Positions 7,741 through 11,786 of a stretch of 52,333 nucleotides of DNA are shown here, in pieces (within the stretch, counting starts at the first letter, position 1; the number at the start of each line of letters is the position of its first letter). This stretch comes from a bacterium (lineage in GTDB: Bacteria; Patescibacteriota; CPR2; UBA1875; JAJYID01). The notes beneath the pieces were generated by a model. The model worked only from the letters and a program-made list of their open reading frames with translations, ran no database searches and was not told where the DNA came from. Both the position numbers and the translations under genes were made by a program. The DNA is taken from the NCBI GenBank assembly GCA_021796415.1, contig JAJYJC010000004.1, positions 1 to 52,333 on the forward strand, given 5' to 3'.

Positions 7741-7820
7741 ATTGGTTAATTGGTTTATCGGTCAGTTGGTATGCGGGGTTATTGTGCACTACCCATAAAC
7801 CCATGCGCCTATTTACCTAT
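7741..7820. repeat. family C 8-nt-periodic hairpin element
   Basis: (TTGGTTAA)-like arm followed by (ACCCATTA)-like arm; contains the rsmH stop. Confidence 0.75.
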
Positions 7821-8744
7821 CTTTTGTATTACTCTGAGTTTTGCGCTTCTCGATCTCGGATTTTCATTTAATTCCTCCTTGCTTGCCGTTATCGGCTTTT
7901 TTGTAAGGATTTTTACCCTTTTCTCGTGTCCGCACTGACACTTTGGAATCTCCGGCGGGCAGATACACCCTTTTGCTTCTTTCTTGAAATATTGCTTTAC
8001 AATGCGATCTTCCATCGAATGAAATGTTATCACCCCAAGTCTTCCGTCTGTTGCTAGTAAATCAATTGCTTGTGGAAGAAATTTTTCCAAGCTTCCAAGC
8101 TCATCATTTACCTCAATCCTTAATGCTTGAAACACTTGGGTTGCCAGATGTATTTTGCCCCTTTTAAGCCCCTTCTTCTGATATGTTTTCTCGACTAACT
8201 CTGCCAGAGTTTTTGTAGTTTTTAGAGACTTAGAGCCCCTTATCGCCACAATTTCTCTCGCTATTGTCTTTGAAAGCCTCTCTTCGCCGTATCTTTGGAA
8301 TATCCCGACCAGATCTTCTTCGCCGTAATCGGATAAAATCTTTTCGGCGGTCAATTCCCTGTCTTTATCCATTCTCATGTCAAGCGGGCCGTTTTCCCTG
8401 AAGGAAAATCCCCTTTCCGGTTGGTCCAGTTGATATGACGAGACTCCTATGTCGGCTAGTATCCCGCTTGCTAGATTTAATCCCTTTCTATCAGCAATTT
8501 CGCTTATTTGTGAGAAATTTGCCTTTTCTATGATTAGGTTTGGATATTTCGGCGCTAAATTGGCTTTTAGCCAGTCTACAGCTTCCTGGTCTTGATCTAA
8601 TCCCAGCAACGTGCCTTTGGGACCGATTGCGCGCAAGATAGCTTCTGCGTGGCCGCCAAAGCCTATTGTCGCATCGATAAAGACCTCGCCCTCTTTCGGA
8701 CTTAAATGCGCTAAAACTTCTTGTAAAAGTACGCTCTTATGCAT
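7809..8744 (-). CDS. rsmH: 16S rRNA m4C1402 methyltransferase RsmH (MraW)
   Basis: HKSVLL, DATIGFGGH, RGFSF, PLDMRM, FQALRIEVN and NPRSRSAKLR motifs; start ATG 8744. Confidence 0.97.
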   Translation of the reverse strand: MHKSVLLQEVLAHLSPKEGEVFIDATIGFGGHAEAILRAIGPKGTLLGLDQDQEAVDWLKANLAPKYPNLIIEKANFSQISEIADRKGLNLASGILADIGVSSYQLDQPERGFSFRENGPLDMRMDKDRELTAEKILSDYGEEDLVGIFQRYGEERLSKTIAREIVAIRGSKSLKTTKTLAELVEKTYQKKGLKRGKIHLATQVFQALRIEVNDELGSLEKFLPQAIDLLATDGRLGVITFHSMEDRIVKQYFKKEAKGCICPPEIPKCQCGHEKRVKILTKKPITASKEELNENPRSRSAKLRVIQKIGK

Positions 8745-8863
8745 CGTTTCACTTTCTAACGAATTAAGAATCAAACGAATCTACAAATACCGCTAATTTT
8801 TACTAACCTATTTGTAACTGTTTGGAACATTTGTAGATTTGTTTAAAAATTTGTAATACGTTA
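8745..8863. repeat. family A hairpin element (diverged copy)
   Basis: Shares AAACGAATCTAC...TTGTAGATT..TTTGTAAT.CGTTA with copies at 30300, 32590, 34453 and 43117. Confidence 0.75.
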
Positions 8864-8871
8864 CTCACTAC

Positions 8872-9082
8872 TTTTCCATAAGTAGCCGGCAGCAACCAAA
8901 TGGGTAGAACTTTTTAGGTTCTCGTTTTTATTTTTGTTTTTTAGAACAAAAAGCAGGATTTTATTGGGCTTAAATTTTTGAGAACATCCGGCGAGATGCC
9001 GGATAAATTTAAGAGATGGATGTTGTTTAGATTGAGTTTTTCAACTCTAGGTTCGTGATTACTACCAGCTATTTACGGAAAA
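8872..9082 (-). ncRNA. candidate structured RNA (27-bp closing stem, four internal hairpins)
   Basis: 8872-8898 pairs with 9056-9082; five of six differences are G-U pairs on the minus strand; internal GAAA tetraloop hairpin. Confidence 0.65.
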
Positions 9083-9095
9083 ATTATCATATTTA

Positions 9096-9108
9096 GTTGT
9101 CAAGGTTC
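9096..9108 (-). promoter_or_regulatory. boxA-like element GAACCTTGACAAC
   Basis: Resembles rRNA-leader boxA (GxxCyTTGAmAAC); no -10 at 17-bp spacing from its TTGACA. Confidence 0.4.
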
Positions 9109-9149
9109 AGCTCAATCTTCTTTGAATTCTCGTAACTCTTGCGGTTCTG

Positions 9150-9240
9150 AATTTTCAACGACCAATTTTCAATTTCCAATCAATTTCTAATTCTCAAATT
9201 GGGATTTTATTGGATATTGGTAATTGGAAATTAGTCATTC
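9150..9240. repeat. family D 7-nt-periodic AT-rich hairpin element
   Basis: (TTTCAAT)n arm followed by (ATTGG.A)n arm, downstream of mraZ. Confidence 0.65.
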
Positions 9241-9254
9241 AATAAATCAATGTG

Positions 9255-9686
9255 CTACATTTCAAGCGATTCGAGCTGTTCTGCTATCTGTGTCGAATCC
9301 TTTTCAACCCTAGCCTTATACTCTTCCCATTCCTTGGTGTCCCAAACCTCAATTCTTGAATAAACGCCAACTATTACCGCATTTGTCTTTAACTTTGCAA
9401 ACTCCCGCAGGTTTTGTGGGATGTTTATTCTTCCCTGTTTATCAAGACTGCAATCGTTTGCGCCGGACAAAACCATTCTGGAAAATGCTCTGGCGTTTGC
9501 TTGGGTGTAGGGCATGCTTGAAAGCTTTGGTGCGATTTTCTCCCATTCTTCCTTCGTATAGACAACCAGAACGTTCTCGAGGCCTTTTGTGATGACTACG
9601 CCATCGCTCAACTTGCCCCGGAACTTTGCCGGTAGAGCTATTCTGCCCTTCTCGTCTATGGAATGTCTGTATTCGCCTATAAACAT
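9255..9686 (-). CDS. mraZ: dcw cluster transcriptional regulator MraZ
   Basis: MFIGEY, DEKGRI.LP, DKQGRI.IP and RIEVW motifs; start ATG 9686. Confidence 0.97.
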   Translation of the reverse strand: MFIGEYRHSIDEKGRIALPAKFRGKLSDGVVITKGLENVLVVYTKEEWEKIAPKLSSMPYTQANARAFSRMVLSGANDCSLDKQGRINIPQNLREFAKLKTNAVIVGVYSRIEVWDTKEWEEYKARVEKDSTQIAEQLESLEM

Positions 9687-9696
9687 TTCTTTAAAT

Positions 9697-9742
9697 CCCC
9701 ACTTTTCACCACTTTCAACCATTTTACCCCACCCATAACCAC
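9697..9742 (-). promoter_or_regulatory. MraZ-binding direct repeats (DCW box)
   Basis: Five (G/A)TGG units at exact 10-bp period (CCAC/CCAT at 9699, 9709, 9719, 9729, 9739) just upstream of mraZ. Confidence 0.85.
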
Positions 9743-9856
9743 GTTGTAAAGACTTTTTTACCTATAGCCCCACTTGATGGATGAAGTGCATTTTTGAGCA
9801 CAAAAACCGGTTATTTTGGTACGATTTTGTGCTCAAGCGTGTCTTTGTCCACAAAA

Positions 9857-10928: not shown

Positions 10929-11741
10929 TTACATTGCAATCTTGATCCCGGGGCCCATGGTGGTTGCAAGAGTTACAGAAAGCACATAGGTCCCTTTGGC
11001 GCCGCTTGGTTTGGCTTTTTTGAGCGCGCCCAGGAAAGTTTCAAAATTTTCCTCTAGCTTCTTCTGATCAAATGAAACCTTGCCGATTATTTGGTGGACT
11101 ATGCCGTTTTTGTCTACTCTAAACTCTACCCTTCCGGCTTTTAATTCTTTAACTGCCTTACCGACTTCGGTTGTAACCGTCCCTGCTTTTGGGTTTGGCA
11201 TTAAACCCTTTGTGCCTAGAATTTTACCGACTTTACCGAGTTTTGGCATCATATCGGGCGTTGCGACCAAAATATCAAAGTCGAGCTTGCCTTTTTCTAT
11301 CTCAGCAATCAGGGATTCGCCAACCTTGTCCGCACCAGCTGCTTTGGCCTCTTTTTCTTTATCAGAACCACAAACAACGGCAATTCTCTTGGTTTTGCCG
11401 GTTCCGTGAGGCAACACAACAGTTCCTCTGACTTGCTGATCCTGTGCGGCCGGATTTACACCAAGCCGAACGTGCACCTCAATGCTTGCGTCGAACTTCG
11501 TAGTTGAGGTCTTTTTTGCAAGCTCTATGGCTTCACTTGCCGAGTATTCTTTGCCGGCCTCAACCAATTCTTTGGCTTGCCTGTACTTTTTTGAGTGCTT
11601 CTTTTCGGATCCGGAAAGCTTTATCTTATCTTTTTCACTAGATTTCTTAACTGATTCTTGCTTAGATTTTGGCTTTTCAATTTTAATTTGTTGTTCTGTC
11701 TTTTCGTTCTTTCGTTCTTTAGCTTTCTTTTCCTCTGCCAT
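10929..11741 (-). CDS. rplA: 50S ribosomal protein L1 with charged N-terminal extension
   Basis: [27 protein letters not shown] and TTMGPG motifs; start ATG 11741 after AAGGAG. Confidence 0.97.
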
Positions 11742-11754
11742 CTTTTCTCCTTTT

Positions 11755-11786
11755 GTGGTTTTAGCGAATTTTTTAGATTCTCCCAC
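11755..11786 (-). promoter_or_regulatory. L1-binding autoregulatory mRNA leader
   Basis: GTGGGAG...GCTAAAACCAC immediately before the rplA SD, matching the known L1 target fold. Confidence 0.7.

Follow-up and report, generated by a model that had tools for sequence, protein, structure and literature searches.

In the cell-division (dcw) operon of this bacterium, 510 nt lie between the first two genes, from the end of mraZ (position 9255) to the present start of rsmH (8744), and the question raised by this spacer is what the element at 8872 to 9108 is and what it does there. An earlier note on the window, by which we mean the whole stretch of 52,333 nt that was analyzed, had read it as a long-stalked RNA. 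mraZ occupies 9255 to 9686 on the minus strand (Pfam MraZ, E = 1.7e-41); comparison with relatives places its probable true start at the ATG at 9686 (MFIGEY), within a frame that is open to 9722. The gene for the MraW methylase, rsmH, lies at 7809 to 8744 on the same strand (Pfam Methyltransf_5, E = 3e-116), and its present start is the ATG at 8744. The dcw genes behind the element form one packed operon, made up of rsmH, an ftsL/DivIC-like gene, a PBP gene, a Mur ligase gene, mraY, ftsW, murG, and ftsQ. Upstream of mraZ, at about 9687 to 9816, a sigma-70-type promoter (TTTACA ... TAAAAT) sits among AGTGGGG/AGTGGTG repeats with a 10- to 11-nt period; this arrangement is conserved in relatives, and the repeats are presumably the MraZ operator. 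Also nearby, the minus-strand ORF at 10929 to 11786 encodes what we take, from its translation, to be ribosomal protein L1, lengthened at its N terminus by a lysine-rich stretch of about 65 residues.

Fold, copy number, and known RNA families

We folded the minus strand of 8860 to 9125, and the minimum free energy structure (-66.3 kcal/mol) has a long stalk and four inner hairpins. The closing stalk, P1, pairs 9056 to 9082 with 8872 to 8898 and has 27 stacked positions, made up of 21 Watson-Crick pairs, five G-U pairs, and one A-C. The fold thus reproduces the stalk that the earlier note had described, and all of the sequences quoted in that note are found on the minus strand where it placed them. 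The fold has a z score of -6.89 and none of 200 shuffles was as stable, whereas the opposite strand has a z score of -1.56 and 10 of 200 shuffles were equally stable. This result implies that the fold signal is specific to the sense strand. Together with the conserved position and structure described below, it bears out the proposal that selection acts on RNA from the sense strand rather than on a DNA palindrome.

In the sense direction, the boxA-like motif GAACCUUGACAAC comes first (9096 to 9108, with 11 of 13 identities to a 16S leader boxA of the class); GAACCTTGACAAC at these minus-strand positions lies 13 nt upstream of the P1 stalk. The 5' strand of P1 (9056 to 9082), which both fold and covariation define, is followed by the variable hairpin 1 (GAGUUGAAAAACUC; 9034 to 9047) and by a single-stranded block, AAACAACAUCCAUCUC (9013 to 9028), which contains the anti-Shine-Dalgarno-like AUCCAYCUC and is invariant in family f1. 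Helix P3 (CUUAAAUUU/AAAUUUAAG; 8969 to 9013) has an outer helix that is invariant in f1 and a GC-rich tip (8986 to 9004) that covaries. It adjoins an invariant block, AAGCCCAAUAAAAUCCUGCUU (8951 to 8971), with a GCCCAA that is found in 26 of 28 class elements, and an A-rich tract, AAAACAAAAAUAAAAA (8925 to 8940), is found in 19 of the 28 and also in smaller relatives outside the class. Hairpin P4 (GAGAAC...GUUCU; 8906 to 8923) abuts the 3' strand of P1 (8872 to 8898), and that strand includes an AUG (8877 to 8879) that is an in-frame rsmH start in relatives.

All four of the inner hairpins listed in the earlier note are present in the minimum free energy fold, and two of them are borne out by comparison. 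The P3 tip folds in all nine f1/f2 sequences, which have seven different tip sequences among them, and P4 keeps its position with family-specific sequences, a hairpin of at least 4 bp abutting the P1 3' strand in 23 of 26 sequences. The other two did not hold up as conserved parts. Hairpin 1 (GAGUU-GAAA-AACUC) is missing in four of the nine close relatives (f1/f2) and present with other sequences in five, making it dispensable, and the U/A stem is not retained, for example in G002 and G008.

When we compared the spacer with the 903-kb genome (49 contigs, 90% complete) by BLAST, it split into three parts, of which the core at 8872 to 9108 is single-copy. Between the mraZ stop and the boxA-like motif lies a dispersed palindromic repeat (9145 to 9240) with many partial copies on other contigs in both orientations. 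This repeat is absent from the spacers of four relatives (G003, G006, G004, and G009) and is not part of the conserved RNA. A second dispersed palindromic repeat (8753 to 8870), between P1 and the present rsmH start, has copies at C31:12654, C1:43131, C1:32612, C1:34470, and C1:30340. The two flanking repeats belong to different, unrelated families. Reading the element as a MITE, which the earlier note had raised, is therefore out for the core, as it is single-copy here and matches once per genome in relatives, but that reading is true of both flanks. In G001, G002, and G005, insertions with other sequences occupy the same two junctions. A boxA-like string stands on either side of the upstream insertion and may be a target duplication.

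Scanned with Rfam 15 at gathering scores, the window yielded four tRNAs only, and a permissive scan (E up to 10) of positions 8600 to 9400 gave no credible match to the element; an Rfam scan of 18 homologous or analogous loci gave none either. The element is thus, as the earlier note had supposed, a member of no known Rfam family at either setting. A described RNA at a similar position is the mraW motif (RF01746), a candidate cis-regulatory structured RNA upstream of mraW in Actinomycetales (Weinberg et al. 2010, PMC2864571). Like that motif, the element is a structured RNA that precedes mraW (rsmH) where the dcw cluster begins. Unlike it, the element has an anti-Shine-Dalgarno-like loop, a motif resembling boxA, and a stalk that is much longer, and we saw no shared sequence motif; RF01746 gave no match in 8600 to 9400 at E up to 10 or in the 18 loci at E up to 0.5.

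We also considered and rejected several other identities. The element is not a housekeeping RNA in disguise, as it matches no RNase P, 6S, SRP, or tmRNA model, and the RNase P RNA of this genome lies at C2:12442-12820, away from the element. The 6S and SRP models found nothing anywhere in this genome; across Patescibacteria, the small SRP RNA model of Rfam matched none of 41 genomes (G000 to G040) and the large model none of five. The SRP result looks like a failure of model or search, or an SRP RNA that is too divergent, and has no bearing on the element. An intrinsic terminator was discarded because no U-run follows the stalk, and a small antisense ORF opposite the motif because the ORFs there have 1 to 19 codons and are, by eye, not conserved. 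A mimic of 16S helix 44 or of the RsmH target site was dropped as well, since by eye there is no convincing likeness to the 16S 3' domain of this genome. In open-access papers and preprints, we found no description of this RNA. The RNA family matches no described family and is a well-supported candidate that Rfam lacks.

Conservation in the class and beyond

BLAST found the core once per genome in seven of eight other genomes of the family and in one neighboring family, always between mraZ and rsmH. In G003, G006, G004, and G009, a spacer of 241 to 254 nt is essentially the element alone, and in this genome (G000) and in G001, G002, and G005, there are extra insertions at both borders of the element and none in its interior. 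Using a covariance model built from nine distinct sequences (R1), we obtained exactly one match in 26 of the 28 genomes of the order (f1, 7/8; f2, 1/1; f3, 11/11; f4, 4/5; f5, 1/1; f6, 1/1). Each of the 26 matches follows mraZ in the sense orientation; mraZ and rsmH flank 25 of them, and the remaining one is at a contig end. Class-wide, the covariance model matches 27 of 32 genomes, and G029 was added by eye and by a second model, R2. In two members, G031 and G029, an ftsL-like gene comes next and rsmH is absent from that place. This implies that what the RNA accompanies is the mraZ end of the dcw operon and not rsmH itself, and the presence of the element without a downstream rsmH also argues against mimicry of the RsmH target site. 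Between stalk and ftsL at these two loci (L069 and L206), there is an orphan strong Shine-Dalgarno-like GGAGGGUGG with a GC-rich hairpin, which may be a relic of a lost rsmH start.

Next, we examined covariation in the stalk. In an alignment of 26 sequences, which was fitted to the model and so favors the structure, P1 has 25 pairs, 20 of which have changed on both sides, and 89.5% of the cells are paired. This pairing level was reached by none of 500 shuffles, and slid controls were 19 to 50% paired. Two P1 positions alternate among A-C or C-A, G-U, and Watson-Crick states. The loop is conserved in sequence: AUCCAYCUY, which resembles the 16S 3' tail (anti-Shine-Dalgarno), is found in 27 of 28 class elements, and the G fraction of the loop averages 0.097 across class elements. 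The smallest members, at 123 to 135 nt, have little beyond stalk and loop. Neighboring proteins fall to about 50% identity across the class while the element keeps its invariant blocks. Collecting the spacers of relatives and testing them for covariation, as the earlier note had proposed, thus gave a conserved position and structure with compensatory changes in 20 of 25 stalk pairs. Taken together, these results show that the element is a conserved, single-copy, structured RNA of the sense strand.

About 260 genomes were sampled in all. mraZ was found in 174 of the 201 sampled genomes of the phylum, and we took the region after mraZ from 60 of these, 59 of them outside the class; 29 of the 59 have a spacer of at least 100 nt or no rsmH found nearby. 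The exact 16S 3' tail, UCACCUCC, occurs on the sense strand in 11 of the 59 outside spacers and its reverse complement in none, against a shuffle expectation of 0.06. By eye, all 11 have the motif in a loop closed by a stalk, often together with AAAACAAAAACAAAA and a run like boxA; after the stalk comes the rsmH AUG, which lacks a Shine-Dalgarno sequence. The P1 core GYAGCCAG/CUGGCURC is common to G091, G157, G106, G164, and this order. Model R2, made from an alignment (A5) of non-f1 class members only and run without filters, gave sense-strand spacer matches with E below 0.05 at 11 of the 60 loci; these E-values are rough, and the best matches are G029 (1.6e-11) and G157 (8e-6). On 151 phylum genomes with strict filters, R1 matched this class only, plus one false match that is not near mraZ. 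The UCACCUCC loci, the shared P1 core, and the R2 matches together imply that the element is one branch of a wider, patchy family in Patescibacteria. In several other lineages of the phylum (L209 and L212 to L215), the mraZ-rsmH spacer is filled instead by long AT-rich hairpins of short repeats.

Searches for phage copies were set aside. A gapped motif scan gave more than 120 matches, and the 80 loci that we examined all look like chance. As a probe, CCATTTGTTCAYCTCC gave 118 matches, but this is what a generic Shine-Dalgarno sequence plus ATG gives when reverse-complemented; among 80 matches examined, 58 were exactly that complement, and the other 22 were without a stalk or A-rich context. 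An f3-type 21-mer and a G078/G053-type 18-mer had no matches in the phage-copy search.

Resemblance to rRNA leaders and the rsmH start

In rRNA operons, the leader and spacer carry boxA, which is the site for NusB and S10, followed by a long RNase III stalk that encloses 16S or 23S rRNA. We therefore compared the boxA-like motif with the 16S leaders of G003, G004, G014, and G031, which read GAACUUUGAAAAC, GGACCUUGAAAAU, GUUCUUUGACAGC, and GUUCUUUGAAAC, respectively. In this class, the rrn boxA directly precedes the 16S processing stalk, and in G003 and G004, only a few nucleotides part it from the pairing partner of the 16S trailer. Ahead of the dcw stalk, this genome has GAACCUUGACAAC, and G031, which belongs to another order, has the nearly identical GAACCUUGACAAU. 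We scored the motif as identities out of 13 to any of the four rrn motifs in the 45 nt that precede the stalk. Of 26 elements, 13 reached 10 or more identities (f1/f2, 9/9; f4, 1/4; f5, 1/1; f6, 1/1; f3, 1/11), compared with 3.5% of random windows of this genome. In f8, both elements reached that score, G029 being scored apart from the 26. The element of this genome has 11 of 13, measured against the leaders of relatives because its own 16S leader is not assembled. The label "boxA-like" that the motif had been given is thus apt. At C39:26-1700 of this genome, tRNA-like genes come after a partial 16S gene, a small ORF lies between them, and the 900 nt read contain no 23S gene; the rRNA operon of this genome may be unlinked or interrupted.

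The likeness to an rRNA operon leader extends to the order of parts: boxA (here the boxA-like motif), a few nucleotides, a long stalk formed from distant strands, and a motif like the 16S 3' tail within the stalk. At 25 to 27 bp with covariation, P1 is a duplex of distant strands at least as long as the roughly two helical turns of an RNase III stalk. Unlike an rRNA operon, the stalk here encloses about 70 to 160 nt, lies within a protein-coding operon, and has a ribosome-binding site on its 3' strand. The genes for NusB and RNase III are side by side in this genome (C49:40741-41867, with the RNase III gene at C49:41478-41867).

boxA is known to act outside rRNA operons in the Nus factor regulation of suhB and other mRNAs, which in Gammaproteobacteria operates by way of Rho-dependent termination (Baniulyte et al. 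2017, PMC5725501). As in the suhB system, the boxA-like motif here is in an mRNA near a translation start. Unlike this element, the suhB system has neither stalk nor loop RNA, and it uses Rho. The RNA-binding domain of Rho was found in none of the 32 class genomes; classical anti-Rho antitermination would thus have no evident target, and an anti-Rho role is unlikely. In 31 of the 32, the model for the GTPase Era, which binds the 16S tail, matches only a Der-like double GTPase and never the KH part, so we rejected an Era decoy. Rho and Era may both be missing from the class.

We also examined where the stalk stands relative to the rsmH start. The AUG within the P1 3' strand is in frame with rsmH in five of nine f1/f2 genomes (G003, G006, G008, G004, and G009), and in G003, G006, and G009, it is the only canonical rsmH start, although noncanonical starts such as AUA may serve there. 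In this genome, the frame of that AUG closes after three codons (ATG GAA AAG TAG, 8868 to 8879), and the present start lies 128 nt downstream, beyond the repeat insertion. The 11 f3 genomes all have a Shine-Dalgarno sequence, AGGAG, that spans the P1 end, with the AUG 7 to 14 nt farther on. In all four f4 genomes, the last bases of the P1 3' strand can alternatively pair with a segment beside the Shine-Dalgarno sequence (-9 to -16 kcal/mol). In four of nine f1/f2 genomes, this one included, insertions shift the rsmH start 60 to 128 nt from the stalk and the element is intact. This implies that masking of the start cannot be the sole function.

A related arrangement exists in the phage lambda N and T7 early mRNAs, in which RNase III cuts a long duplex that contains an initiation region, changing translation and separating cistrons. 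The element likewise has a long duplex holding an initiation region, which RNase III may cut. Unlike this element, the lambda N and T7 leaders are phage messages and are not known to have conserved loop motifs or boxA arranged in this way.

What the element may do

Our preferred reading, to which we give a rough probability of 0.45, is that the element would be a cis-encoded domain of the dcw transcript for processing and translation control, similar to an rRNA spacer. The P1 stalk would form during transcription, and where boxA is present, NusB and S10 would hold its 5' strand near the polymerase. The intact stalk would mask the rsmH initiation region, and RNase III would cut the long duplex. 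That cut could separate the message for the repressor MraZ from rsmH-ftsL-ftsI-mur-ftsW-murG-ftsQ and free the downstream initiation region, which in f4 would refold into a 5' hairpin. A further role is probable for the excised loop RNA, in which the 16S 3' tail motif is copied.

Several observations favor this processing and translation-control reading: the single copy that always follows mraZ directly on the sense strand, the covariation of P1, the sense-specific stability, the rrn-like boxA, the presence of nusB and RNase III genes, and the start codon or Shine-Dalgarno sequence in or beside the stalk. Against it count the boxA score, which is 10 of 13 or better in just 13 of the 26 elements, the failure to find Rho in the 32 class genomes, and the ftsL-like next gene in G031 and G029. 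The strong sequence conservation of P1 and of the loop motifs also counts against it because it is more than a plain RNase III stalk would need. The invariant loop and the survival of the element away from the start codon are unexplained by masking or cleavage, so a second role of the excised loop is likely, for example as an anti-Shine-Dalgarno-type RNA or as a decoy for a 16S tail binder.

In the alternative that fares best, which we nonetheless consider doubtful, such a role would be the whole function. The stalk would be an excision signal only, and the product would be a trans-acting RNA of about 150 nt whose C-rich seeds (AUCCAYCUC and GCCCAA, or UCACCUCC in relatives) base-pair with the Shine-Dalgarno regions of other mRNAs or sequester a factor that recognizes the 16S 3' tail. 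The loop motifs are conserved beyond the flanking proteins (of 28 elements, 27 have AUCCAYCUY and 26 have GCCCAA) and the loop is G-poor, and the element persists both when it is uncoupled from the rsmH start and when rsmH is lost downstream. The sense-only UCACCUCC in 11 of 59 spacers outside the class points the same way. Additionally, there is a precedent in UpsM of Rhodobacter sphaeroides, a small RNA from the dcw 5' leader that arises upstream of mraZ and ends at a terminator (Weber et al. 2016, PMC5089854); it is cut by RNase E with Hfq and is restricted to Rhodobacteraceae. Like UpsM, the element is a noncoding part of the dcw transcript with possible action in cis and in trans. Unlike UpsM, it lies downstream of mraZ, and we saw no likeness in sequence or structure between the two. 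However, we found no conserved complementary site across 27 loci, the only site being in this genome alone. Pairing of the loop with the mraZ initiation region was rejected as well, as the two do not covary: matched pairs gave -11.5 kcal/mol and mismatched pairs -11.9 kcal/mol in the 14 of 26 genomes that could be tested. The fixed operon position and the 3' strand within a ribosome-binding site point to a role in cis.

Less probable still is a sensor, either a riboswitch or a protein-binding leader, in which a ligand or protein on the junction and loop would stabilize or open P1 and so set the translation of rsmH and the genes beyond; we regard it as quite improbable. The invariant unpaired nucleotides, the peripheral hairpins that vary, and the overlap of the initiation region with the 3' strand of the closing helix are consistent with a sensor, as is the alternative pairing conserved in f4 (4/4 and seen only there). 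Switching helices of known riboswitches are, however, far less stable than a stalk of 25 to 27 bp with conserved sequence. The minimal members consist of a stalk and a largely unstructured loop with no evident pocket, Rfam riboswitch models had no match in the spacer or in the 18 related loci, and the element is kept where it no longer touches the start codon.

A second MraZ operator in the DNA is highly improbable. On the antisense strand, AUCCACCUC becomes GAGGTGGAT, a sequence similar to the MraZ boxes that precede mraZ; in these genomes, the mraZ promoter regions have AGTGGGG, AGTGGTG, and AGTGGAT boxes with a 10- to 11-nt period, and G029 and G031 have three to four copies of the motif at about 20-nt spacing. 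Yet the CACCU-CACCU spacing varies by family from 18 to about 36 nt, stalk covariation through G-U and A-C states is sensible only for an RNA of the sense strand, and the motif in spacers outside the class is no MraZ box but UCACCUCC, which is exactly the 16S tail. A functionless, decaying remnant of an rRNA operon fragment or an old mobile element, for which one could cite an rRNA-operon-like layout that could descend from a truncated rrn copy and mobile repeats that insert at the borders, is close to refuted by the covariation, and the element is also single-copy and syntenic class-wide, with invariant blocks beside neighboring proteins at about 50% identity and with insertions at its borders but never in its interior.

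What the processing and translation-control reading shares with a bolder proposal is the resemblance to rRNA genes. We think it unlikely, but of consequence if true, that the dcw operon of many Patescibacteria contains a miniature "rRNA gene," with boxA, stalk, and a copy of the 16S tail, that is handled by the machinery of rRNA transcription and processing. Were this so, the released RNA, or competition for the rRNA machinery or for 16S tail binders, would tie expression of the division genes to ribosome production, and the element would represent a new class of regulatory RNA by rRNA mimicry in organisms without Rho and apparently without Era. Independently of that proposal, the element defines an RNA family that covaries strongly and always sits between mraZ and the division genes. 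It is unusually built, joining an rrn-like boxA, a long stalk, an anti-Shine-Dalgarno copy, and a ribosome-binding site in the stalk. It offers a handle on posttranscriptional control of the division genes and a possible link between ribosome biogenesis and cell division in these ultra-small bacteria.
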